64,000 nucleotides of DNA from assembly GCA_051294375.1 (NCBI GenBank), contig CM119264.1, positions 26,910,340-26,974,339 of the forward strand. Reading direction: 5' to 3'. Each line of letters starts with the position of its first letter. The stretch's first letter is position 1. Made by a program: the position numbers and the translations under genes. Below the pieces are notes generated by a model. The model was not told the origin of the DNA, did no database searches, and saw nothing but the letters and a program-made list of their open reading frames with translations. This document shows, piece by piece, positions 1 through 61,253 of this stretch. This DNA is from Paraspadella gotoi (Eukaryota; Animalia; Chaetognatha).

Positions 1-396
1 AAAGATCATTTTCTTTGTCCGTTACAGTCCAACGTATTTTCGGAATATTTTGAAACAGATTTGAATTTTTTTTCCCCAAAAATAAAAATAATGTCGAAAC
101 TACCTGCTCGCCTTCGGGAAACTAATAATTATGCGTCGATATTGAAATTTTGGGCGTTTTAAAGTAAAATATTTTACATTTTATTATTGAAAGTTTAAAA
201 TTTTTAGGCGTATTTTTTTTTTAATTAGATTTTATACTCTAAATCTTTAATCACACTGTATTATTTATAATCCTGCAGTTACAAGTTTTTTTAAATTAAA
301 GCCCTAATCTTTTACTGAAATTTCAAGTAAGTTTAAAAATTAACATCAAACAATCGCATAAGAGAAAAATGCTCTAATGGTAATATTTTATAACTT

Positions 397-851
397 TGTC
401 GCCTGATGTGTTGTGGGCGGAAAGTGCATCACCAGGTTGAGGCATGTCGCCTGAAAGTGTTGTTGTTGCTGTTGTGTTCGGAAGACGGGCTCACCAATGA
501 AGAGACAGTAATTATTGATAAGTGTTAATGACAGAACCGTTCAATATAAGCAGTAAGGCGTAGTGAAAGTTACATACAAAAATTCTAAATATCAATTATG
601 AACAACATACCATCAGTAAACTTTAATTTGTAAAAAAAAATTAATTTTATGTTCAATTTTTGCAGTAGGCTATATTTATATATAGTACTACTCCTATAAC
701 ACCATGTTACAGGCGGGTTAAGCGCCCCGTCCCTCTTAACTGCTAGGCGACCACCGGGCTAGAACCCCGGACCTTTGGGTTGGGAGGCGAATGATTTGCC
801 TCCAGCACCAATGGCCGCTGATGAACGGTTGGTGGATTTTAGTCTACCATA
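397..851 (-). mobile_element. Family-1 tRNA/twister repeat copy with P4 replaced by a hAT-MITE end fragment (554-693)
   Basis: Reverse complement of 694-851 matches 60720-60880, and that of 397-554 matches 60471-60632. Confidence 0.8.
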
Positions 852-1789
852 AATCATGTTTTAATAATACCCCGTGTCCGTTTGCGAGTGACATTAAAAA
901 AATCTTTACTATACTTTAAATATATAATAAATTTAATTCATAAGTTTATCATTAGTTGGAGAACTACTTCACGTCTTTTATGTATAAGTTTCATTAGCCT
1001 AATGATTAGGTGTTTAATTTTTTTACTATTCTTAGTTTAATTTTTTATCTAACTCAGTAAAATTGGTGAAAAAAGACCATTTAGACGTGTTCTTGATTGA
1101 ATTTTTTAAAAAAACTTTATATTATTAGAAATCCTTATTAATGGTAATTATTGGGAATTATTATAATGTTGAGTAACTGAATAATGAATTTTTATTTATT
1201 TGTATTTGTTTGTATTATTTAATTGTAAACTTAAGTTTTCATTATACAATTTGTCCAATTGGCGATCCCGGAGTTGAATTCGCTCTGGAGGCTTATGGGA
1301 AAACAAAGAGAAAGAAGAGGAAAAAATAAAGTTCGTTTCTTTACGGAAAAGAAAATTTAAGACAGTAATAATAATGATATTAAAAACGTTTTTAAGCTTT
1401 ACGAGCTAAGGATTTCTTTTTAATTCTTTAAAAAATTTAATTATAATATTTTTTTTATTGTTTTTGATAGATATTTACAAAATAAGTTTTTATTTGTGAT
1501 AACCACGATCATTTAATAATTCGGATATGTTTTGGTTCTTGTTTTTTGATCCTTCATCAACCAGTTTTAATAATAATAATAAATATTTAGATATTAACTT
1601 TGAGAGATAGAGAGGCAATTTTAACTTTGATATTTCTCACTCTCTCCGAATTATTAAATGACCATTGTAATCATAAATAAAAACTGTTACTTTATAAATA
1701 TTATTATTATATTTTTTATAAATTTATTAATATTTAAATATTCTTTTTTGAAATGTTAAATTGTATACTTAAACCAAAACTTAATTCTA

Positions 1790-3253: not shown

Positions 3254-6245
3254 ATGAGCAGTTTGATCTCCGGACCCTTCAACTCTCGGGGGTCCCGGCA
3301 GGCGTCTCCCAGTCTCCCTTCAATGAGCACTGGAGGCGTCGGCGGAGGCGGCGTCGTCGGAGGAGACGCTTTGCCCTCAGCGACCATAACCCCGGCGGCG
3401 ACAACTACAACTTACCAAGCGGAGGATTTCCTCAACATCCCCAACGACATGGCGCAGATGTTGGAGGCGGAGATGAACGAGATTCTCCACGGCGGCGGAC
3501 TCGGCTCCGCCTTCGGCCCGCCGGGCTCTCAATTAGACGCGGATTCGACGGCGCCGTTTTTCATGCGTCTCGATACTCCGGGGCCGGACGAACTCCCGAG
3601 TCTCGACTCCTTCGATCCGCTCAACTTCGGCGTCAACCTCGAGTCGGACTTCGAGGGCAAATACGCGAGCCTTCTGTCCGGCGAGGCGCCCAACCTCTCT
3701 TCGGACACATTCTGCGGGAGGATGTCTTCGAGCGTGGTCGTCGATCGAGCCACTCTCACGACATCTCCCTTTTCTTCGTTTCTCTTCGACTCCAACTCTC
3801 AGCCCGGCAGCGTCGGAAGCACCGGAAGCGGGATCAACAGGAATCCCATACTCATGGTGGACCCGCAGACGGGGATTCCCAATCAGCCGATGGTGCCGAC
3901 GACGGTCTCGCAAAACGACGACAACGATTCTTCAAAACTCTGGTCGGAAACGACGACGACCAGGACCGTGAGTTCGTCGTCGCTCTCGTTCGCCACCAGA
4001 CCCTCAATCGCCGCCCCTCACTTGCCTTTCCCTGCGCCGGCGACGCAATCGGGAGCGGTTGCCGCCGCCGCTTCCCAGTGTGACCGCGACGTGCACATGA
4101 TGTCGCCGCCACCGACTAAACCATTTGTCAAGAGCGAGGCCACTTTCGCCGGCGAGAATTCCAAGTCTTCCGAGGCTCGGGTGGCTCAATCCGCCGCCGC
4201 CCAAAATGTCCCCGTCAAATCCGAGGAGAGTTCTCAAGTTTGGAGTCAACTCCAAACCATTTTGCTCAGCGGCACCAACGGCCCGATCTCGAGCAGCCTG
4301 CTGCAGCAATTGCAGCCGCTGCTGTCGCAACAAAAATCCAAGAATATAATCGTCCAGGCAAAGGCGTTGACGCCGACCTCGTCGTCCGAGTCAGCGACTC
4401 GCGCCACCCCGCCCGCCGCCAACGGCCCCACGAGCTTTCAAACCGTGCAGATTCTCAAGTCGGGCGCGCCCGGCTCCGTCAACGGCACCAAGACCGTCGT
4501 CTTTCGCGGGGGAGATGTCCCCAAAGCCCCCGCCTCCGTCGGCACTCCCCAGGGCGCCTTTAGCACGCCGACCACGATGGCCGCGGCTCCTACGACGCCC
4601 TTCGGAACCGCAGTCTCGTCCGCCGCGCAAGGTGCTAATCGGAACGGCGCCGCGTTATCGTCCTCCGCCGCCTCCTACCCTAACCTCAGCTCCCCCTCGG
4701 AGGCGCGGAGCGGATGCAGCGTATCGTCGGAAAACTCGGACGAGGATTCGCAGGAAGTTGGCCACACGGACGGAGAATCGGACAATCCCTTTCCCAAGCC
4801 AGTCTACTCGTACAGTTGCCTTATCGCGCTCGCCCTCAAGAATAGCAAGACTGGAAGTTTGCCCGTCAGCGACATTTACAATTTTATGACGTGAGTAAAG
4901 CGAGAAATAAATATTAAATTTGAACAATCAATATAAAATTATTCATTCATACAATAAACAAGCTATCTTCCCCCTGACTTTAATCAGGCTATGGTACTTT
5001 AATAGATAAAAATATAATAATAATATAATAATAATAAGCTCTCAATCAAGTGATTTAAGTGATATAATAATTTTTAATCGTTTCCATTGAATTAAATGAC
5101 CTCTCCCTTAATTATGTATCGGGGTATACAAAATACAAGGTTCTAAATATTATGAAATTAATAATGCCAATATAAAATTAATCATTCATTCATTCATTAA
5201 ATAGGTTCTCATGCCCCTGAGTTTGGACGGTCTATTTGATTCACATTCGAGTAAAGTTTACTCCGTACTAATAATAATAAATGTTTAAATTTAAAAAAAA
5301 AAGTCCCCATCTATTCACAACCCTTTATATCGTTCAATTCAGCGATAACTTTCCTTACTTCCGTACCGCTCCCGACGGATGGAAGAACTCTGTACGACAC
5401 AACCTCTCTCTCAACAAATGCTTCGAGAAAATAGAGAAACCCGGAGCCAACGGCCAAGGGTCACGGAAAGGATGCCATTGGTCGCTCAATCCGCTCAAGT
5501 TGGAGAAGATGGAGGACGAGATCATCAAGTGGCGAAAAAAGGATCCTCAGGGCGTGCTCAGGAGCATGTCTTATCCCGGTAAGGAAATGTGATAGTTCAC
5601 AGAAGCCGTGAGCTGTTAGTAGATGTCTTTTCACTTTTGTTGAGCCTTTGTAGCCTACACCCGTTAAGCTTTTTTCGTCGAATTTATTGCAATGTAGATA
5701 AGCAGCGTTGGGGGTCGGGTTTTTTTTTAAAGATAGTTTTCTTCCAACTGTTACAGTTGGTTACCTCTTGAAATAAAACTTTACTATCGCAACTTAACCT
5801 CTCTCCTTTCGTGTCTCCCCACCGTTCCACAGAAAAACTGGAATCGATCGAGCGCGGAACCATCACGTCCTCGAACTACTCCGAATTCTCTCACCTTCGC
5901 GATCCCCGTCTTTTGTTCGAAACTCATTCCGACGAACCCGAGTCCCAGTCAGTCCCGTCGCAAGTTCCCAGCGTCTCCTATCCCGCCAAACAAATGGTAA
6001 AGATGTCCGATCTCGGCACCGCCCTGCAAAAGGACGCCATCAAAAAGGATCGCGACATTTCCACCATCGACGTCTCGGTCCGCCACGAAGTCCCGCCCAC
6101 CCAGTTGACAACGACGGGAAATATCTTGGCCTCGCTGAGCGGAATCGCCGGCGGCTCCAACTCCATTAAGTTTTCCTTTTCTCCCGGAACGAATCGCGGA
6201 AAGTCTTTGTCCCACTTGACGTCCATCCTTTCCAATCAGACTTAG
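3254..6245 (+). CDS. FoxN1/4: Forkhead box transcription factor, FoxN1/4 class (761 aa predicted); exons 3254-4890, 5343-5578, 5833-6245
   Basis: The forkhead domain [33 protein letters not shown]|[32 protein letters not shown]...[10 protein letters not shown]...RSMSYP|EKLE is characteristic of FoxN1/N4. GT-AG introns 4891-5342 (phase 2) and 5579-5832 (phase 1) join in frame; total 2286 nt. The frame is open back to a splice acceptor at 3219, so an upstream exon is possible. AATAAA at 7026-7031. Confidence 0.93.
4920..5270 (-). mobile_element. Degenerate family-2 repeat (partial tandem) in FoxN intron 1
   Basis: The reverse complement shares AAAGTCAGGGG..AGATAGCTT.TTTATT.....TGAATG..TAATTTTATATTG and spacer words (CCTTGTATTTTG, TAAGGGAG.GGTC) with 44500-44710. 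Confidence 0.7.
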
Positions 6246-32650: not shown

Positions 32651-33355
32651 GAAGCCACTTTGACCCTCTCATTGAATTCAGTTTTTTCCACCCAAAAAAT
32701 GTTTCGCCTCCACGAATCCAGTTTCGCTCCGACGCCAATGGGCGAAGAGAGAGTTCGTCGTCGTCATCCTCATCGTCGTCGTCGTTGTCGTCATCATCAT
32801 CCTATTCTTCATCGTTGTCATCCCAGTCGACACAGAAACAAAGCTGTATTCGCCGATTATTAATGTTATTGTCATTTTTACAATTGTTAGACCCAAAAAC
32901 CTTTGTCATCATTGCCATCGACAGAGTCTTAGCCGTCATCTTCTAAAAAGATCGATTTAATCTCATTTCAGCCAATGAGCAGATTGGGTTCGACTCTACG
33001 CCGTCGCTGACGTCGTCGTCGTTGTCGTCGTCATCTTCGTCGTCATTGGATTTGTTTCTGCGGATTTTTCGCTCCTTCCCCTCCGGCTCATGTTCCAGTG
33101 TCTTCGTAAAAATCCGTGTCAGACTCTCGTTCGAGTTTACTCTCCGTTTTCGAGGTCGTCAACTCTGTTTTTCTTGTTGTTTTCTCCTTTGTTTTGGAAA
33201 ACGTTGGAATACGTCGTCCTTAAAGGGGATTTGGCGTCGTTTTCGTCGTTGTCGTTTTCCTCGTCGTCTTCGTCGTCGTCGTCGTCATATTCGCTGTCGT
33301 TTTCTTTCTCTACACTAACCTTTTACGTTCTTGCTTTCTTTTTCCTCTCTCCCCG

Positions 33356-33731
33356 TTTTTAGTTACGCCGCGAGGACTCGCGGAGAAACTCTATAAGTCA
33401 CTTTTCGGTCGGTCTGTCGGTCCGTCGATATGTCTGCCCATTGGTCAGTCCCACTTACGTTTAAAATACGTATAATTCGCTTTTAGTTGGTTGTTCATTT
33501 GTTTAGACAGAAAAAACCTCAAATCTAAGGGACTGCTATTGCCACCTTCAGGAATTCCTAAAACTAAAGATGAAAGACAGAATTTTGATGCAGTGCATGT
33601 TATAAATACATAAGCAAAAAAGTTATTTAGTCATGTTATGTATATGTCATATCATGTCATGTCACCGAAGGTAAAATACACGTGAAAATAAAGTCACTGC
33701 GGCGCAACACATTGGAATTACCGTTATTGTT
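33356..33731 (+). mobile_element. Helentron-associated non-autonomous element (HINE/DINE-1-like)
   Basis: T-run ends, subterminal IR GTTRCGCCGC/GCGGCGCAAC, hairpin CCGCGAG..CTCGCGG, GTCY microsatellite. Confidence 0.75.
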
Positions 33732-33929
33732 TTTTCATACATATATCCACTCCATCTTTTAATTATTTCCCATCACTCTCTTCTTGTCTCCCTCTTTCCT
33801 TTTTCTATTTTCCTCGGTCTTTCTTTCTTTCTTATTACTTTCCTCCGCATTCTTCTCTGTCACTATTTGTTTTAATTTTTCGTCCCATTATTTTATCAAT
33901 CAAATTCAAAAAATCTTTTCCACTCTTTA

Positions 33930-38985: not shown

Positions 38986-41900
38986 TTAGCCGCCACACGA
39001 TTCTGTTTTCGCTGCGAGGATTTCGTTGACGGAAGCGGTGGTTCCGACGAAGACGGCGAAGACGCTGAAGACGAGAAGTAGGGCGTCCAACCAGAGACGC
39101 CAGTTCAAACGCCCTGCTTCTTCGGGTCTTTGGGGAAGGGCGGGAGGAAGGGGAAATACGTATTTAAAAAAACGAGGCAGGGTAAAGTCATCGCCGAATT
39201 GTGAATTATTGTGACACCTTGGAATCCTACGTAACAAATCGATGACGATGGGGATTGTCACGGACAAAGGGCAACCGATGAGAATTCCAACCAGCGAGAT
39301 GAAGGGGCCTGATTTTGAGAATGCAAAAGACGTTTCAGTTTTACGAATTGGAAAAATATTTACCCAATCATTAGTAATTTATGAAATAACAAGGAACGGT
39401 TATTCCAAGGTGTTGCGCGACGCGGCGCGGCGCCAGTAGTCGCTTAGATTTGATTTTTAACAAATGGGCAATAATCTATAAGCAAGTTATAAGCGCTTTT
39501 AACGTAAGTGGGACAGACCGATGGACAGACATACCGACGGACCGACCGACCGACCGACGGACGGACATCACTGCCATTACGATTAACTTACACCTTCAAT
39601 CACAACCAAAACGATTCACGTTGAGTTCGATCGTCTTCGGGACAACTCACCGATGTGCGGAAAAGCGGCGGCGATGACAGCGGAGCAGACGACGACGACG
39701 ACTCTGAGGCCGAAGTCGCAGAGATCGAGGTGGCGATCGTCGACGATCCACTTCTTGACGCCGCCGAAGACAATCCCGTGAGCGACGAAGAACTGGATGG
39801 CGTAGGAGGAGACCACCGCGCAGGAGAAGATGCCTTTGAGGCTGAAGGAGGAAGTAGGCAAGAAAGTTATAAAGAATTAGCAAACTCTTTTGTGGGAATT
39901 TTAAATAAATTTCTGGGGTTTATAAATACGTTTTTTGATACAAAATGAACTTTTACGATATGTACAGTGACTTATAAACGATTTCCGCATAGCTTGGCCG
40001 GGTTGAGGGTCCAAGCAAGGCAAAAAAAACCGTGTCTAAATGATTTTGTGAATTAGGTTTAAAAACAAACCCAAACAATCATTCATAAACTTACGACGAA
40101 ACATTTTATACAATTAGAGGTTTATGGATCTAATTACTACCAATTATGTTACTATGGCAATGGGGGGGGTCATGTGTGATGCCTGGGGTGTGAGGCATCT
40201 CCCAACAGCTGGCGCTCAGGGCTTTGGACGAGCTGAGATTCACCAAGCTATGCGGAAGGCGAATTTAGGATTCGCCATATTACATATATTGCTCTGCAGC
40301 AAAGAGAGGCCTAAATATAGTCGAACATTTCCTACAAATAAATAATAGGGCTGCGCATCGTTCGAATCGAAGTTCCGATCAAGTTCCTTTATATTTCACT
40401 TCTTTTCAAAACTGCATAGTCAAGGCCAATATAAATTATATCAATATGGGTGAGTTTCGAAAGCTTGGCGTCTTGGGAAGCCAACGGAGGTAGAGCGCGA
40501 TCGAAATTCCCATTTTATCATGCCCAAAAATGGTATTTAAATGAACTGGTCAGACCGTTTTTTCCCTTTTCCAAAAAACCTGCTTGATTTTTGTAAAATA
40601 GAACAAATCATACATATCAGTACGGTTTCGGATAGCTTATTGTCTTCTCTACTAGGTAAAAAAAAGAAAAGTTTAATTCTTGCAATCTTGAATGCCTGAT
40701 AAAGCAATCAAATGAACTGGTTTTTTAGGTGAAAACTGCATAGTCAAGCCTTCAATTTTTTTTTTGTTCTAAGACCATCGAAAGAAACTGTATTGTTTTT
40801 TACTATCTGTTTCAGGTAGAGCGCGGGGGTAAATTTAGAGAGTTTATATTAAATTTAGAGCAAATAGAAAGGATATCAAGTTTTTGCACCTAAAAGCTTT
40901 TTTAAGCGCGTTCCGGTCTGTATTGAGGACATCAATTAAAATTAAGCATTGATCATGCGCGATCCGGGCCAGATAAATACCATATTTCAACATGGCTTTA
41001 CCGTATTTTTTACGTTTTAGAACGCAGTCTGTATGAAATTTTTGAATTTCACGCCTGTGATATTGGCGTTCTCGGCGTCGTTTGTCCCTTGTTAGTCTCT
41101 TTATCTTATCTCTTGAAGAGACATTAATTTTGTTATGTGATAGTGACAAACCGTTCAATAAAATCTTAAAAGCAATGGATCGAGCTTACTTTTAATGATA
41201 ACCAAATATTGATGCGATGATAATCAAATATTGATGCGAAGATAACCGAAGGATTGATGCGATGATAACAAATGATGTATGCGATGATAGTCATTCATTG
41301 ATGCGATGATAATCATTCATTGATGCGATGATAGTCCTTCATTGATCGGATGATAATCATTCATTGATGCGATGATAGTCATTCATTGACGTGACGTGAC
41401 TTTGAAAAAAGTATGCATATTTTAAAAAAGTATGCATACTTCAAAAAGTATGCATACTTTTTTCAAAGTATGCATACTTTTTTGAAGTATGCATACTTTT
41501 TTAAATATGCATTCTTTTTGAAGTATGCATACTTTTTTCAAATATGCATACTTTTTTTCAAAGTATGATACTTTTTTCAAAGTTGCATACTTTTTTCAAA
41601 GTTTGCATACTTTTTCAAAGTTGCATACTTTTTTGAAGTATGCATACTTTTTTAAAATATGCATACTTTTTCAAAATATGCATACTTTTTTCAAAGTATG
41701 CATACTTTTTTGAAGTATGCATACTTTTTTTAAAAATAGCATACTTTTTTAAAATATGCATACTTTTTTTAAAGTATGCATACTTTTTTAAAATATGCAT
41801 ACTTTTTTCAAAGTATGCATACTTTTTTGAAGTATGCATACTTTTTTAAAATATGCATACTTTTTTCAAATTATGCATACTTTTTTCAAAGTTTGCATAC

Positions 41901-44334
41901 TTTTTTCAAATATGCATACTTTTTTGAAGTATGCATACTTTTTTTAAAATATGCATACTTTTTTCAAAGTATGCATACTTTTTTCAAAGTATGCATACTT
42001 TTTTCAAATATGCATATTTTTTCAACTTGCATATCTTTTTCAACTTGCATATCTTTTAACTTGCATATCTTTTTCAACTTGCATATCTTTTTCAACTTGC
42101 ATATCTTTTTCACTTGCATATCTTTTTTCAACTTGCATACTTTTTAACTGATTACCGCTAAATTATCTTAGTCAAATCCGACATTGTTTGCTCAAACTTG
42201 TTCTATAATAAGCCGGATTCAGATATGACAATTTTAGATATTAAACTATCGTCTATTATTTTTAATTTTTTATTCATTGATCAATTTATTACACATTAAT
42301 CATATATCTTTTAATTATAGTTTTATTGCTATCATTTAAATCTGTTATCATAAATTAAAATGATTCAAAAATGAAAAATTAATCGTTAAGTGACAATAGT
42401 GAATTCTTAATTAGTTAGTTTAATAGTAGTTTTGCTGGTGAGATCAGTCAATATACTTTCAATTTATTACTTCTTTGGCTCTCTTGTCTTTTCCTTTTTT
42501 ATTCTGTTATAATTATGTTATTTTTGTGATGAATTTTGTAAGGATTCCTTTTTTTCCGGGCTTCGCTTATTCTATTTTCTCTTATGAGGCCGGTTCGCGC
42601 ATAATCGCTATATCGGTTTAAAGCTTAGTACTATAGTACAGTAGTTCAAATCCTTATTGGATCAAACCGAGTTCGATTTTAAGCGAAAGTTGATCGATTT
42701 GAAGCGCGATTTTCGCGACTGTTTTTTATTGCCATAACTTTTGAACGGATTATCCGATTTTATAAAATTTTGCATATAGATAGTATTTTAAATTCCCTAT
42801 CGATCGGTACCAAATTTATTTAAAATACCACCAATAGTTAGAAACGATGCACATCCCCATATATAATTCGAGGATTACAATGATTTATTGAGTTATAAAA
42901 TACCTATCATTAATCAGCCCTTTCGGCAAATTGAGAGTGATTGCTCGCAGCGAGTCTCGCCCGAATCTCAAGTAGCCAAAGAAAGCGAAGGAAAGTAGAG
43001 ATGTGGCGCTCAACGTGATTCCGACGTTGGTGACGCCGAAAGGGGACGTCATCTCTTCGGGCAGCGCCATTTTGTTTTCCAAAGGCAAGACGACGACGGA
43101 ACCTTGGCAAAAAAAATTATAAGAGCTTGTTTGAATATGTTTAGAATAGATTTTGGTATTTTTTGACTTTTCTGTGCGTTTGGTTTTTTTAAGTTTTCTA
43201 AACAGAAACTAATTTAAAACTTAGTCTTGAGATCATAATCAAACATCTATCAGTGTTTAAACGTTCTTAACAGTAATTTATACAAGGCTTTTAAAATTAA
43301 GCATTTTCCCCACACATTCAAATATCAAACCACAATCATTTACCCTCGAAAGAAAAAATGAGCGTCGCAAAGAAGACTGGGTACTTAATCGGATCTGGAG
43401 CAACCATGTCCAATTCGCTCATCGGCAGAAAGTCTTGCAGCAAGAAAGCGAAGATGATGGTTGATGCAAGGAGTTGAACGGCGATGCCGACGCAAGATAC
43501 GATCGCTAACAGTTCCACGTTGCGGACAAAGATGACCAAGATGATCAGAGGGAAGGTCAGGGAAATGTAAACCTGCACAGGCCAGGTGCAGTCGATAATT
43601 TCTCGAATGTTTTCGCCTGAAAAAGCACGTCTCAAGAATTATCTACTTTCAAATTAAAACTAAATAATAAAAAAAAAAACATCTTTCCTTACCAATAAAT
43701 ATAAAGTAAAAAATGAGAATCGACCATTGTTGCAGCAAAATCAGAGAGTTTAACATTTTGTGGGCAAATTTAGCGAATGGTGCACAGAAATTAGGACCGT
43801 AAGCAAATGCAAACTGGAACGTGTCCCCATAGTCTAGAGAGCCTCGTTCGGTTAATGCACAAAAAAACCTAAAAAAGAAAATATTTATACTTAATTGCAA
43901 ATCGCGTTAATATTTATGGATTATTCAAAATTTCACCTCGAGGCAGACACCAAGCAGTGCAAGCAGTAAATCAGCAGCAGGGAGTAGAGCGGAATCATCG
44001 CCCCGGCGACGAGCAGTCCGACGCGGGCGACGGCTGCGGGCAACGCCAACGTCGCGGGGCCGACGAAACATTTGACGAAATGCGCCAGGGTAGCGTGAGT
44101 GGAGATTCTGTCGGGCGGAGACGAAGTCGACGCCGATTCTCTCAAAGGATGGGCGTGGCGCGACTCTTCCGCCGAAATAGCATCGATCACGTCCAAGCCT
44201 AACAAACGTCTCGTCTCTGCTGCGACGTTAGAACTTTTTTCGCCGTTGAGGCCGACGTCGGGGACGCTGCCGCCGCAGCTGCCGCCACCGCTTCCGCCGC
44301 TGTCGCCGCTGCCGCCGCTGCTAGCGTTTTTCAT
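38986..44334 (-). CDS. Proton-coupled amino acid transporter, SLC36/PAT-like (Aa_trans family), 519 aa predicted; exons 44334-43937, 43868-43693, 43616-43344, 43102-42904, 39841-39651, 39308-38986
   Basis: Motifs TLAHFVKCFVGPATLALPAA, SLDYGDT, FFATLIFSFEGSVVVLPLENKM, FGYLRFG...ITLNLP, YAIQFFV and FISLVG match SLC36. All five introns are GT-AG and phase-consistent; exons sum to 1560 nt ending in TAA. Confidence 0.92.
39388..39570 (-). mobile_element. Truncated HINE/DINE-like element in SLC36 intron 5
   Basis: Same terminus AACAAGGAACGGTTATTCCAAGGTGTTGCG and GACCGAC repeats as the 49135 copy. Confidence 0.7.
41195..41390. repeat. Tandem repeat of about 21-22 bp (TGATGCGATGATAATCATTCAT)
   Basis: About nine visible units. 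Confidence 0.9.
41400..42147. repeat. Minisatellite of about 19-20 bp with palindromic core AAAGTATGCATACTTT
   Basis: More than 30 visible units; drifts to CAACTTGCATATCTTTT at the 3' end. Confidence 0.92.
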
Positions 44335-44464
44335 TTTTCAACACCCACCTTCTTTTTAAAATTTTAGACAATGTTTTTTTAGTTGAATAAAACATAAAAC
44401 ATAAAATAGAATATAAACCATAACATAAAGCTTGCGGAAAGCTTGCAGGGACCCGCTATGTCAT

Positions 44465-44527
44465 TATCTTGTAAGAGTGATGGAGGCCATAAACCACCAA
44501 AGCCTGTCCAAAGTCAGGGGCGAGATA
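44465..44527 (+). ncRNA. Twister ribozyme, type-P5 permutation, no P3 (repeat family 2, copy A)
   Basis: P5 TATCTTGT/GCGAGATA; P2' GAGT; GA; T1' TGG; AGGCCA; TAA at 44490-92; P2 ACC; T2 AC; CAAAG; P4 CCTG/CAGG closing T-CCA-AA-GT. Confidence 0.78.
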
Positions 44528-44791
44528 GCTTATTTATTAAATGAATGGATAATTTTTATATTGGTTGTACCAATTTCATAAATTTTAGCTCCTTGTATTT
44601 TGATGCTGGACGGAGTACAATATAAATATATATACGATCTAATACTTAAGGGAGTGGTCTTTTCATACAATTGAAACATTCTTTAAAATATTATACCACT
44701 TCATTGATAGGGAAGCCACTTACTCTTGGAGTGAATAAACGAGACTGTGAGAGAGTCTTGATTGAAAGCTTGCAGGGACCTGCTATGTCAT

Positions 44792-44854
44792 TATCTTGTA
44801 AGAGTGATGGAGGCCTTAAACCACCAAAGCCTGTCCAAAGTCAGGGGCAATATA
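44792..44854 (+). ncRNA. Twister ribozyme, type-P5 permutation, no P3 (repeat family 2, copy B)
   Basis: Same layout as copy A, with palindromic P1 AGGCCT (44811-16) and TAA at 44817-19. The P5 3' strand GCAATATA has one mismatch. Confidence 0.78.
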
Positions 44855-45116
44855 GCTTATTTATTAAATGAATGGATAATTGTTATATTGGTTGTACCAA
44901 TTTAATAAAAAGTAAAATGTTTAAAAAAGCATTTCGGAAGAAAAATACAGTCGCCAAAAGTAGATTACATAATTTCAAATAATTTAAAACATTTGACGGA
45001 AAGAAACTCGTATTAAAAACTTTTTCGAAGGTCTATGTCGTAAGCTGTCTCTAGTTGATTTCAAATATCTACGTGGAACATTCGACCGAGATTTACTTTT
45101 TGTTTAATGAGATCTG

Positions 45117-45188
<72 letters not shown>

Positions 45189-46198
45189 TGGGAACAAAAG
45201 TTGAACAACAAGCGAATTCAAATCTTGTTAACGACGGCGTTCTTCTTGTGACAAACAAGCGCTGTTCGGGGTCGAGCGCTTTATCGAAGATAGGCGCTCC
45301 AACGAAGAGAACCCTCTTCGCTTTTCTCATTCGCTAAAAATGAGCAAAAGAAATCCAGGAGACGCGAGAATTCCACGATTTGCATAAAAGAAGAATGAAA
45401 AGAGGAAAACCGTCGGGATTTCGGAACCGACGTCGTCTGAAAATCTAGATGAACGCGAGAGACGAGAGACGCGACCCTGCAGTGATTGAGGAGATAATGG
45501 AGCAGAAGGGAGACTAGAGACACGACAGACGCGAGCCGAGATAAAAGAGAGACGAGAGAGCAGACGCGTCGTCGGCCCCTGAGGTGACCGGCCCCGACGT
45601 GGACCGACATCGACCCGACGAGAATGCGTAACGCGGACGCGATATTTAGTCGAGAATGGCCCGACAATAGGAAAACCGGCCCGACAATGGGACATACCGG
45701 CTCTGCCCTCTGGAGGTTAAACGTTTGAAGAAAGAAAGAAAAAAGAAATACAGAAATAACGGGAAGGTCGCTAGAGGAGAATGGGGGGGCGGAAGAATGA
45801 GCGAGATAGAAGAAGAAAAGAAGAAATAGACTATTTAATAGTGGAAAAAGGAAAAGCGAAAGGCGAGGAAATAAAATGAAAATAGGTGAAAAATAGGGAG
45901 AAAAGAAAGTAATGTTCGCGCGAGAAATTAAGAAAAGGAAAAAAGAAAAAAATGTTGGTAAAAGATCAGGAGATATTAACGCAATGTATCAGAACTCCGT
46001 GACCGGAAAGATATAGGGTTTAACCTTGAAAAGGTTAAATTATTAGCGTCTTATTAAACACTAGACTCCACGAAACGGAAAAATTTCGGCGTAGTAGAAT
46101 AAAAGTTTTTTGAAATTAATTAGAAAAGCTTCGTTATCTTTTAATCAGTTGCTCTATTACTAAAAAGCAGAGCCAAACATTTTCCAAACGTTTTTTTA

Positions 46199-46577
46199 AA
46201 CAAGAACGGTAATTCAAATGTGTTGCTCCGTAGTGACTGCGATATCACGTGTATTTCTTGTGACATGACTACATGACTACAATAACTTTCTTAGCTCATG
46301 TATTTCTGACACGCACTGCATCGGAATTTTGTTTTTTATTCTTTATAGTTTTAGGATTTCCTGAAGGCGGCGATAGCAGTCCCTAAGATTTAAAGTTTTT
46401 TCCTGTCTTGACAAATGTGTAACCAACTATATGCAAGTTATGAGCATTTTGAATGTAATTAGGACAGACCAATGGACAGACATACCGACCGTCGGACTGA
46501 CCGATGGACCGACCGACGGACCAACCAAAAAGTGACTTATAGATCTGCTCCACAAGTACTCAGGACACAACTAAAAA
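46199..46577 (-). mobile_element. HINE/DINE-like element
   Basis: Reverse complement is colinear with 33356-33731. Confidence 0.75.
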
Positions 46578-46611
46578 TGAAAATTTCTAGGAATGATTTT
46601 CTTTTTGTTCA

Positions 46612-46894
46612 TTTTTGTTGCACCACGAGTACTCGCAGAGTAACTCTATAAGTCACTTTTCGGTCAGTCGGTCCTTTGGTATGTCTGTCCGTCAGTCTGT
46701 TCCACTTTAAAAAGGAAAAACCTTCAAATCAAAATTCCGATGCAGTGCTTGTCATAAATACACGGCTCAGAGAGTTATGGTAGTCAATTAGTCATGTCAT
46801 GTCACATCGTCATGTCATATAATGTCATGTCACAAGAGATACATGTGATAAGGCAGTCGCTGCGGCGCAACACATTTGAATTACCGTTCTTGTT
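46612..46894 (+). mobile_element. HINE/DINE-like element, inverted relative to the adjacent copy
   Basis: CGAGTACTCG hairpin, CTCTATAAGTCAC, GTCY repeats, GCGGCGCAACACATTTGAATTACCGTTCTTGTT end. Confidence 0.75.
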
Positions 46895-48284
46895 TTTATA
46901 ATATCCATTACTTTTTCGCGGCCATGTCCAATGGCATTGTCCATTGTCCAATGTTCATTTTTTAAATCTCTGTAGCTTGGTCCTCCGTGTTCATTTCGCT
47001 GTCATTGTAAACCGCATGTTCTGTCACGGACGTTTTTTCACCATGGAGACCCGAGGCAAGAGGGGAGGGACGGGGGGGGGCGGCAGTCGGAAAGAGTTGG
47101 AAAGGTTTATCGAAGCGAGACGCCACAGCCTCATCCTCTTTGCATCCATAACTCAAGTAGGTGACGTCGTTGGGGCCTCGCTTACGAGGCTCACCCCTCA
47201 CCGCTCACCACTCACTGCCCAGCCATAAAAAATAACACCCTTCACCGCTCACCGATCGTCCGTTAGAACTCATCCATTAACCCTCACCCTCCCGGTTGAT
47301 CGTCATTGTCGCAGCTCTTTATTCTTAACTCACCCTTGAACCTACCTTAACCCTAAACCCTAAACAAAACGCGCGATACATTCACTAAGACTTGCGCGGG
47401 TTGGATGGCGTTGTAATTACTTGGAACCTAAGTTTGCTAGCGTTTTGGGTGGCATTTCGGCGTTGAGAATGGAATTGAAACAATTAACTCACCCAGTAAT
47501 TCATATTATATATATATTATCGACCAAATTCTCATTTGCATTTTATAATATTTTGCTCACGATATGCTTTTTCTTTGAACATCTTTAGATTTTAACTATT
47601 ATCACGTTTAAAGTTTTGTTGTTCTCTTTTTACAAAGATTTTAATAAAAACTGCCATTTCTTTTTGTGGGGTGTTAAAATTCAATTATTGATATTAATTT
47701 AATGCAGTGAATTCCAGTTCGATGGTTAATTGGTTATGTACTTCGCTCGAAAGGGAAGCTCGCAATACCGCAACTAAAAATAAAATATGCAATTGTATTT
47801 GAAGAAGAAAATTTTTGAGTACTTCACTCCTGGAGTACATCGACGATAAAATGAAAAAACGCCGGTGCGTTTGAAACCCGATTCCTCGAAAGCGCGTCTG
47901 CGGCGTCTCTCCACGTCATCTAAAACGCGCCGCCAGTTCGACGGCGCCGGTGCCAAAGAGCGCCCGCGGTTTTGATGCGCTCGTCAAACGGGTCTATTGG
48001 TGTTGATGGGGTCGCGCGCAGCTTCATGGTGCCCAGGATGTGCCAGGCCGTTGTTAGATAATCGAGACAAAGAGGTTTGAGAGATAGAGATAGAATAGAG
48101 AGAGAAAGAAAGAGAGAGAGAGAGTGTGTGAGTGAGAGAGACAGAGTGTAGAGAGAATAATGAGATAATGATATAACTACTGAGCGACGTCATCGCCAGT
48201 AAAAATTCTACGCAGTACATAGAAGTAAAAAAAAAATTCAACGATATACAATTGATCGCATTTACAACGCGTTCACTCTCTCTC

Positions 48285-49134: not shown

Positions 49135-49552
49135 AACAAGGAACGGTTATTCCAAGGTGTTGCGCCGCATTACTCTTCTTTTTACTTATCATATCATTTA
49201 TTCCTTTTAGTTTATAAGATTTCTTTGTTAGACATGATGTATTAACCTTTCTTTTTTGTTGTTAGTTTTAAGTTTTAAAGTTTTAATGATTTTTTACAAC
49301 AAATAATAATAAAAACAAATTTATTATAAAACTTTGTTTTTTCTACTAAAATTTTTTTAAAAACAAAAGGCGGCGCCAGTAGTCACTTAGATTTGATTTT
49401 TAACAAATGAGCAACAAACTATAGACAAGTTATAAGTATATAAACGTAATTGGGACAGAGCGATGGTCAGATATACCGACAGACCGAGCGACCGACCGAC
49501 CGAAATATGACTTATAGAGTTGCTCCGCGAGTACTCGCGGCGCAACTAAAAA
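49135..49552 (-). mobile_element. HINE/DINE-like element
   Basis: Both termini present; perfect palindrome CCGCGAGTACTCGCGG (49525-40). Confidence 0.75.
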
Positions 49553-50305
49553 TGGAATGAGCCATAGAGACAAGGAGAGGAGAAAAAAGCACAGAGTGGC
49601 CATAATTTCCAAGTAAAAACCTCCTACGAGCCACCGAAACATTTTTTTGAGCGGAGGGGAAGGGATGGGGAGAAAAGGTAGGAGGGGACGGGGAAAGAAG
49701 GGAAGGGGACGGGGAGAANNNNNNNNNNNNNNNNNNNNNNNNNNNNNNNNNNNNNNNNNNNNNNNNNNNNNNNNNNNNNNNNNNNNNNNNNNNNNNNNNN
49801 NNNNNNNNNNNNNNNNNNNNNNNNNNNNNNNNNNNNNNNNNNNNNNNNNNNNNNNNNNNNNNNNNNNNNNNNNNNNNNNNNNNNNNNNNNNNNNNNNNNN
49901 NNNNNNNNNNNACGGGAAAGGGGAAAGGAACAAGAGGTCAGAGAACTAAAGGGGCAAGGAACAAGAGTCGAAAAAAGATAGAAAAAGGATAGAAACCAAA
50001 AAAAAGTGGAGGGAAGGGATTTTAAAGAAATAGATCGGGACCCGCGGATTCGCGAAGACGAAGCTTCTCCGAATATCAGTTAAACCCGGTTTTTTCTTTG
50101 GCACCGAAGTTCGTCGGCCGACGGGACGAGAGGTGGGAATCAGGGGGGCGTAAGGGGGGGGGGGAACGGTGTAACGACCGCGTTGTTTTTTTTCGAGAGG
50201 TGCTCGCTCTGTCTCTGTCTCTGTTCTATATCCGCTCTCTGTCTCTCTCTGGTGTGTGTATGTGTTTCTTTTTCTTTCTACTTATATGTCTTTCTCTCTC
50301 TTCGT

Positions 50306-59810: not shown

Positions 59811-60397
59811 TTTATTTTTATCATTAATGTCAAAAGCAATACAGGCTCTTTGTTTAAACATGTTAAAATTCAGAACGGCAGAATTAATCTCGGCCTATAA
59901 TTATAAACATATAATTTTCATCAAAAAACTAAAGTAAGCAACGATATTGTTTGGATTTAAGAGGCTTTAAGCACAAAAACTGTTAATCAATGGAAAATGG
60001 GCGAAAAGAGTTTTAAATTAACAAAATAATATGTGAAAAATATTGGCATATTAGGGCACTTAAAATCGTTATTAGCAATACAGTAAAGTAACGACGTTGA
60101 TAATTGAATTTATTATACAAAAGAAGATAATTCGCTGGCATACTAGGGTAGATAACTTGCATATGTACTGTGTAGTAGGGTTGAAGTGAAAGTTTTGAAT
60201 CAAAATTTAAAGCAGTTATATTTTGAAACTATCTTAATTAGGAATACTAAATCTGTAGTTATTTTTTTTTTTTATAAAATATAGTAACCCAGTCAACTTT
60301 TTAGTATAAATTATGTTACCCTTATGCCATTGGTGCCAGAGGCAAGTCAATCACCTCCCAACCCAAAGGCCGAGGGTTCTAGCCCGGTGGCCCGCCT

Positions 60398-60476
60398 AGC
60401 AGTTAAGAGGGACGGGGAGGCTTAACACCGCCTGTAACACAGTGTACAGCCTGATCCGAAAAGCTCAGGGACTGCT
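60398..60476 (+). ncRNA. Twister ribozyme, type-P5 permutation (repeat family 1, copy A)
   Basis: P5 AGCAGTT/GACTGCT; P2' GAGG; GA; T1' CGG; short P1; TAA at 60423-25 (predicted cleavage U/A); T2 GC; P3 hairpin CTGTAACAC...GTGTACAG; P4 CCTGA/TCAGG closing T-CCG-AA(AA)-GC. P2 pairing is imperfect in this copy. Confidence 0.78.
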
Positions 60477-60827
60477 TATATTGAACGGTTCCTGTCACTA
60501 ACCATAACAATAATCCTGTCTCTTCATTTGGTGAGCCCGGACTTACGAACACAACAGCACAACAACACTATTCAAGGCGACATGCCTCAACCTGGCGATG
60601 CACTTTCCGGCCAAAACACATCAGGCAACATGCCTCAACTAAGGTAACAACTTTCCACCAACAACAACAATTCACTGAAAGACGCAACAGACTTCTCCCT
60701 CCGGGAGGAGGGGAATGTATGGTGACTTAAAATCCACCAACCGTTCATCAGCCGGCCATTGGTGGCTGGAGCAAGTCATTCGGCCTCCCAACCCAAAAGG
60801 TCCGGGTTCTAGCCCAGGTGGCCGCTT

Positions 60828-60903
60828 GCAGTTAAGAGGGACGGGCGCTTAACCCGCCTGTAACAAGGTGTTTACAGCCTTATCCGAAGCTCAGGGGACT
60901 GCT
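60828..60903 (+). ncRNA. Twister ribozyme, type-P5 permutation (repeat family 1, copy B)
   Basis: GCAGTT-AA-GAGG-GA-CGG-GCGCT-TAA(60850-52)-CCC-GC-CTGTAAC..GTTTACAG-CCTTA-TCCGAAGC-TCAGG-GGACTGC; one mismatch in P4. Confidence 0.78.
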
Positions 60904-61253
60904 TATATTATATTATTATATTATAATAATGCCAAAATTTCAAAATAAGTTTTTTTGAAATTTTGACTCCTCATAAAAAGTTGATAACGTACATATCTTT
61001 TTTAAAAATTAAGTATTAAGTAGGTTAAAATTGTTAAAAACTAATATTTTATTTGAAAATAATAACATTAAGTATCATCAAACATATTTTTTTTTAATAT
61101 TTTTGACAAACTTAATGAAAGAATGTTAAAAAAGAATTAATACTTTCTTTATCAAATTTTTGAAACAAATTCAAAATCTGGTTTTTGTAATTTTAAATTT
61201 TATTAAACAAAGTTGAAATTTTATTTTTGTAAACGAATTTTATTGTTACAATG

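Follow-up and report, generated by a model that had tools for sequence, protein, structure and literature searches.

The window, by which we mean the whole 64,000-nt stretch of Paraspadella gotoi DNA that was analyzed, has an animal-like gene setting that includes a forkhead gene, split by introns and most similar to FoxN1. On its minus strand lies an Aa_trans amino-acid transporter gene (matched frames 43936-44337, 42888-43208, and 39619-39876), whose first matched frame starts about 100 nt from a 473-nt insertion and is oriented head to head with it; a promoter region shared with this gene could transcribe the inserted element. The insertion is composed of a 146-nt repeat, a 181-nt single part, and the 146-nt repeat again (Table 1). 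A decayed second insertion of the same 327-nt family lies in the window, as do copies of another family, with a longer unit, which we call family 1, the 327-nt family being family 2. Also present are a 19-nt palindromic satellite at 41408-42145 and a repeat family dispersed in either orientation (33353-33732, 39427-39561, 46198-46897, and 49367-49555). A bacterial promoter scan of the window stayed at chance level, the model being bacterial and irrelevant to an animal host.

Table 1. Features of the 327-nt family, of family 1, and of the metagenomic contig L001. Coordinates refer to the window except for L001, where they refer to the contig.
Feature	Coordinates	Strand	Basis or remarks
Whole insertion	44437..44909	+	473 nt, 1.45 units of the 327-nt monomer
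Direct repeats	44437-44582 and 44764-44909		146 nt each, 95.9% identical, offset 327, 6 differences
Twister copy 1, type-P5 order	44465..44527	+	Parsing and Rfam Twister-P5, 22.0 bits
Copy 1, 5' half	P5 5' 44465-71; P2 3' 44475-78; GA 44479-80; T1 3' 44481-83
Copy 1, middle	linker AGGCCA 44484-89; UAA 44490-92; P2 5' 44493-95; T2 44496-97
Copy 1, 3' half	P3-less junction 44498-502; P4 44503-06; T1 5' 44508-10; T2 3' 44513-14
Copy 1, end	P4 3' 44515-18; P5 3' 44521-27
Twister copy 2	44792..44854	+	Layout of copy 1 shifted by 327; Rfam Twister-P5, 25.8 bits
Predicted scissile U/A bond 1	44490..44491	+	Homology to twister consensus (PMC8501958, available text)
Predicted scissile U/A bond 2	44817/44818	+	Homology to twister consensus
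Self-complementary hexamer AGGCCT replacing the P1 hairpin	44811..44816	+	Family majority
Predicted unit RNA between both cut sites	44491..44817	+	327 nt, 35% GC
Family-wide 3' terminus	44906..44909 (44579-44582 in copy 1)	+	Contig loose ends in X1, X5, and X9; end of the decayed copy
Decayed second insertion of the 327-nt family	4909..5233	-	Antisense in an intron of the FoxN-like forkhead gene
Family 1	60326-60909 (approximate)	+	427-nt unit, twister with P3, partial-tandem layout
Family 1	397-854	-	427-nt unit, interrupted inside P3 by other sequence
L001 twister	385-446	-	Contig of 1097 nt; P3-less type P5; Rfam P5, 24.2 bits

A first-pass annotation of this locus had described a tandem repeat with TAA sites 327 nt apart. 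The TAA triplets are found at 44490 and 44817 and the direct repeats are real, but they form a partial tandem rather than a full array, and the repeat extends to 44909, beyond the end at 44907 given there. Because only 1.45 units are present, the 327-nt repeat is unlisted by TRF in the window. Relative to the predicted cuts, the insertion begins 53 nt upstream of the first site and ends about 92 nt past the second, and in run X1 the depth drops to flank level beyond these limits. The decayed copy, read from 5233 to 4909, starts about 10 nt after a cut site and stops at the family's 3' terminus. Directly before this end, at 44887-44902, is a small hairpin (6 bp, 3-nt loop) that the decayed copy lacks. 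No target-site duplication of 10 nt or longer adjoins the insertion. The predicted unit RNA gave no Pfam match in the single frame scanned, and no reverse transcriptase or endonuclease match was found by Pfam among 141 window frames (140 of the 472 open stretches of at least 55 amino acids, chosen by complexity, plus one).

Both repeats hold what parses as a complete type-P5 twister fold, and both are predicted to self-cleave. The elements run in the order P5-P2-GA-T1-P1-UAA-P2-T2-P4-P5, with the ends inside P5, as in type P5 (RF02684), and both copies carry UAA at the predicted cut site and G-A before T1, as the twister class has them. The pseudoknots T1 (CCA/TGG, 3 bp) and T2 (AC/GT, 2 bp) are complementary in both copies, P4 comprises 4 bp (CCTG/CAGG) in both, and P2 has two Watson-Crick pairs together with either a bulge or a C-A mismatch. 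Copy 2 has one private P5 mismatch, at 44851, where the family majority base restores the pair. A descriptor demanding T1, T2, P2, and P4 pairing matched only these two copies in the window and nothing in 30 block-shuffled windows. The element series and the type-P5 fold proposed in the first-pass annotation are thus borne out, every named element parsing in order at both sites, with Rfam matches to the P5 model that lie below its cutoff: both scores (Table 1) fall short of the gathering score of 37.6 bits, largely because the model expects a long P1, as seen in the alignment, and the P1 hairpin is missing. An Rfam scan of the whole window returned nothing at or above gathering and no hammerhead family.

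As a yardstick, type-P5 twisters were collected from viral contigs with two patterns, both of which fix T1 as CCC/GGG. Sorted by the 3' side of T2, the loci found number 109 for GC and 119 for GU; the distinct cores numbered 107 and 150, of which 94 and 122 were well formed (13/107 and 28/150 were dropped), for a total of 216. Helix pairs were counted by parsing each core and not from MAFFT alignments, where the cores were out of register. With GC on the 3' side, the 5' side was GC in 90 cores, AC in 1, and otherwise in 3; with GU, it was AC in 103, GC in 17, and otherwise in 2, an association between the two sides (Fisher p ~1e-40) in which related phages are not independent observations. Although reviews refer to the T2 pair as a "conserved GC" (PMC5408937, in its available text) and the AC/GU pair at this locus had been taken for a departure, AC/GU is a standard natural variant in type P5: 104 of the 216 have AC on the 5' side of T2. 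The absence of P3, also pointed out earlier, is real but no oddity, as 180 of the 216 phage twisters lack it too. The phage contigs L147-L265 often hold several type-P5 twisters within a few kilobases, up to 5 in 2.4 kb (L167), and in them AC/GU is as frequent as GC/GC.

The partial-tandem layout is common to both repeat families. Each of the three ribozymes of family 1 in the window carries damage; the helices originally assigned to that family (T1 CCG/CGG, T2 GC/GC, and P2 CCC/GAGG) are correct for the copy at 60836, and the paired changes claimed against them are likewise present, the helices differing on both sides. The description of the 327-nt repeats as a sequence-unrelated, independent family fits the bodies, whose best local score of 15 is reached by 89% of 300 shuffles, but not the ribozymes, which have in common the P4 strands, the junction that precedes P2, two G ahead of P5, and the tail that follows P5. 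Judging by these shared parts, common descent of the two ribozymes seems the likelier explanation, probably as sister lineages. Given such homology, what the two-sided substitutions of T1, T2, and P2 indicate is compensation, not independent origin.

The most unusual trait of the element, one absent from the first-pass annotation, is its palindromic six-base P1. In copy 1 the hexamer ends in A (44489) and the end pair is lost. The linker between T1 and UAA is at least 14 nt long and forms a hairpin in all 216 well-formed phage twisters, and none of the 240 short-linker matches in viral contigs (scans of 8/64 and 63/64 parts) or of the 34 pattern matches in prokaryote genomes passed all pairings. 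A 6-nt linker permits either a single pair with a 4-nt loop, at a cost of +5.6 kcal/mol, or a P1 shared between copies, for which the hexamer self-duplex gains -9.1 kcal/mol. Family-1 linkers are the six-base GGCGCT, self-complementary with G-U ends, in one of the three copies and 5 and 7 nt long in the others.

With the idea of a palindrome recorded beforehand, a metagenome scan was run that allowed 4 to 8 free linker bases and forced most core bases. It gave three matches, of which only one, L001, passes all pairings, and its linker, CAATTG, is a perfect palindrome. The other two, L002 and L003, were rejected, having neither P4 nor an Rfam match. A 123-nt terminal overlap in L001 implies a 974-nt circle or tandem unit, making it a candidate viroid-like circle or tandem repeat; Rfam found no second ribozyme in it, and four of its five listed open reading frames had no Pfam match. 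Its P4 and P5 sequences differ from those of the 327-nt family, with double changes in P2, T2, P4, and P5, and L001 is a third, unrelated lineage. The three hexamers have different centers (GC, CG, and AU) and each is self-complementary, where a random hexamer would be a Watson-Crick palindrome 1.6% of the time, or 5.3% if G-U pairs are counted. The evidence for palindromes comes from no more than three lineages, two of them from one genome and probably related. Should P1 amount to just two pairs, the self-complementarity left to account for would be that of the central two bases.

Sequencing runs from three studies of one organism yielded 26,193 (X1), 4,423 (X5), and 1,459 (X9) contigs that align to the element. 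Run X1 also spans the flanks and may be the source of the window; X5 and X9 are without flank coverage. Among the listed contigs, 604 (X1), 139 (X5), and 93 (X9) have loose ends at 44579-44582, 89 to 92 nt after the predicted cut in all three studies. Because these ends run into unrelated flanks (agreement, 0.37 to 0.48), the family consists of hundreds of insertions at least, and the ratio of element depth to flank depth suggests a copy number in the thousands, the summed depth itself not being a copy number. A minority G-to-A variant (~14 to 17% of X1 depth) converts a U-G pair to U-A; in P2, 11% of X1 depth departs from the unpaired A. At 44522 (A in 97 to 100% of depth in X1, X5, and X9) and at 44851 (G in 93 to 99%), the majority bases make P5 fully Watson-Crick, so that both window copies are privately damaged versions of a better-paired source. 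The 19 listed core variants, each at 1 to 3% of depth and mostly transitions (C>T and G>A), reflect one dominant source and neutral decay; variants so scattered give little power for covariation among the family's own copies, and within-family covariation was rejected as a test of structure.

Runs X10, X12, X13, and X16 each contributed 1 or 2 contigs of depth 2 to 6, close to the window sequence, and in these runs no diverged homologues of the family were found. A sequence-only family profile matched known copies only, and the family pattern had no matches in viral contigs. In one contig of run X16 (depth 2), a family-1-like tail is fused to family-2 sequence inside the ribozyme, at 44836; a template switch, a nested insertion, or an assembly error is possible.

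We consider it probable that the 327-nt repeat, a high-copy non-coding dispersed repeat, is a non-autonomous retrozyme-like retroelement with a predicted type-P5 twister in place of the hammerhead, moving by the following steps. A head-to-tail transcript would be cut at the two U/A sites 327 nt apart, and the unit RNA would, as for retrozymes, probably be circularized by a host ligase. A borrowed reverse transcriptase, most likely of the Penelope type by analogy with known animal retrozymes (bioRxiv 10.64898/2026.07.22.740005), would start about 90 nt downstream of the cut and continue for more than one turn, giving the fixed 3' ends and placing the 5' end of this copy 53 nt ahead of a cut site. 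Such a cycle has been modeled for hammerhead retrozymes (PMC7761336 and PMC7229834, as far as the available texts go), and the available text of PMC4209133 describes palindromic helix III and dimers in hammerheads of Penelope-like elements (PLEs) and tandem repeats.

In the same scheme, the hexamers of two tandem copies would pair into one shared P1, producing a strand-swapped double twister, a nested structure in which the 5' half of each ribozyme pairs with the other's 3' half. For the window sequence, the strand-swapped form comes to -72.9 kcal/mol against -59.3 kcal/mol for two monomers, in energies that leave pseudoknots and three-dimensional geometry out of account. The unconstrained tandem fold, at -96.5 kcal/mol, is neither ribozyme form, with a hexamer pairing probability of 0.13, and the circular fold of the monomer is not beyond shuffles (z -1.6). 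On this analysis the strand-swapped step itself is plausible but somewhat doubtful, and we place modest weight on it because monomers may cut without a dimer. In the minimum-energy fold, positions 44500-44615, the first part of the unit RNA, fold into a long hairpin in which the twister's 3' half is buried; in this model, the hairpin would stop a finished circle from cutting again. More tentative still is a wider reading, in which these are twister-based animal retrozymes, mobilized like Penelope-dependent hammerhead retrozymes, whose palindromic P1 produces a strand-swapped double twister, so that the dimer design of the double hammerhead was reached independently and is common to unrelated circles such as L001.

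Alternatively, each ribozyme in such a retroelement may cut as a monomer, with one or two P1 pairs closing a tiny loop and the palindromy incidental or used for other pairing. Twisters can dispense with P1, whose deletion costs little in the work accessible to us (PMC5408937 and PMC11662667), so a monomer could make do with a single pair around a four-base loop; co-transcriptional folding would favor local folds, and two of the three family-1 copies are without a six-base palindrome. We nonetheless find a monomer unlikely as the whole explanation, since it must account for three different self-complementary centers, that of L001 included, for the preference of the energies for the self-duplex over the one-pair hairpin (-9.1 against +5.6 kcal/mol), and for a short linker seen in none of the 216 phage twisters.

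Other explanations change the nature of the element itself. The repeat may derive from an autonomous element with twister ends, Penelope-like or of another non-LTR kind, either as its terminal repeat or as a remnant left by internal deletion, and may spread as linear, partial-tandem RNA with no circle involved. This would suit the partial-tandem layout with its fixed 3' end, the sharing between families 1 and 2 of a ribozyme end but not a body, and the derivation of animal retrozymes from PLE pseudo-LTRs reported in the accessible part of a preprint (bioRxiv 10.64898/2026.07.22.740005); it is improbable, however, in view of the 141 window frames with no reverse transcriptase or endonuclease match and of PLE ribozymes that, where PMC7761336 and PMC4209133 could be consulted, are described as hammerheads. 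Last, the twister may be a decayed relic that no longer cuts, in a repeat that spreads by another route, such as SINE-like or DNA-level amplification. Rfam scores under gathering, an imperfect P2, and core variants that resemble unselected decay after insertion could all be read this way. Against this, neither window copy is as well paired as the family majority, double changes separate the lineages in four helices, and the twisters tested in the available part of PMC11662667 tolerate P2 imperfections, which leaves a dead ribozyme very improbable.

The hammerhead is both the defining feature of animal retrozymes and the motif used to search for them. A twister version, if true, would mean that the retrozyme cycle needs self-cleavage but not a given ribozyme, and that twister families escape both hammerhead pipelines and the Rfam cutoff. 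A natural twister that pairs with its neighbor through a palindromic P1 would, if true, be a new folding mode of a much-studied ribozyme, with relevance to the circular-RNA expression tools built on tandem twisters that are mentioned in PMC7229834 (available text). The fixed 3' end offers a handle for finding the mobilizing enzyme. The literature searched contained no description of a tandem twister retrozyme or of a P1-mediated twister dimer, and the available portions of PMC6765202, PMC10085705, and PMC5680766 have nothing on tandem twisters; Roth et al. 2014 and the CHiTA supplement (PMC11662667) may list short-P1 type-P5 sequences. As documented in the accessible parts of the respective sources, twisters occur in many animals (PMC11662667) and at the 5' termini of RTE elements (PMC8501958); they are also known from viroid-like circles (bioRxiv 10.1101/2022.07.19.500677, PMC12542633, and PMC8216279) and from tandem pairs of ribozymes in totiviruses (PMC13725137).

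Among known systems, the predicted ribozyme itself is close to the type-P5 twisters (RF02684), the class of Roth et al. 2014 as cited in the available texts of PMC5408937 and PMC6765202. It shares with them the strand order, the UAA and GA catalytic positions, and T1, T2, P2, and P4; it differs in its six-base palindromic P1 in place of a 14- to 30-nt hairpin, its P2 bulge or mismatch, its T1 of CCA/UGG, its sub-gathering score, and its location in an animal dispersed repeat. The twisters of Perere-3, an RTE element of Schistosoma mansoni (T-variant; Liu et al. 2021, PMC8501958), are likewise weak-P1 twisters in an animal retroelement. In the available text, however, each element, a coding LINE, has a single such twister with an open P1 at its 5' end, beside a target-site duplication. 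The 327-nt element is type P5, tandem, and non-coding; its 3' end is fixed, no duplication of 10 nt or longer adjoins it, and the window frames scanned gave no reverse transcriptase. Twister viroid-like circular RNAs (bioRxiv 10.1101/2022.07.19.500677 and PMC12542633) are also small non-coding twister units, and L001 resembles these, but in the accessible parts of those papers they are mostly type P1 and not described as genomic dispersed repeats; there is mention of one circle that bears a single twister-P5.

The hammerheads with a minimal or palindromic helix III (Cervera and de la Pena 2014, PMC4209133, available text) offer a parallel to the hexamer: the helix adjoining the cleavage site is reduced to a short palindrome, which permits a dimeric active form. 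They are another ribozyme class, one in which helix III is indispensable; as P1 can be lost from twisters, a dimer may help here rather than be required. PLEs share with the 327-nt element the direct terminal repeats, the partial-tandem layout, and a ribozyme in each repeat, which here is not a hammerhead; they differ in having an open reading frame for a telomerase-like reverse transcriptase and a GIY-YIG endonuclease between the repeats, where the present element has 181 nt.

Similar in anatomy are the metazoan non-LTR retrozymes, as characterized in the available texts of Cervera and de la Pena 2020 (PMC7229834) and bioRxiv 10.64898/2026.07.22.740005. Like them, the element is a non-coding head-to-tail repeat at high copy number with one self-cleaving motif, here predicted, per unit, and at 327 nt, 35% GC, and 1.45 units it lies within their monomer range of 150 to 450 nt and their GC content below 50%. 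Metazoan retrozymes have been shown to form circles, which for the 327-nt family are predicted, and they are defined by a type I hammerhead, where this element has a twister, a word absent from the available text of the 2026 preprint (Li, Clavereau and Pollet). With the hammerhead missing, the 327-nt element is not a member as defined; by ribozyme class it is outside the retrozyme definition, yet on its anatomy it works like one.
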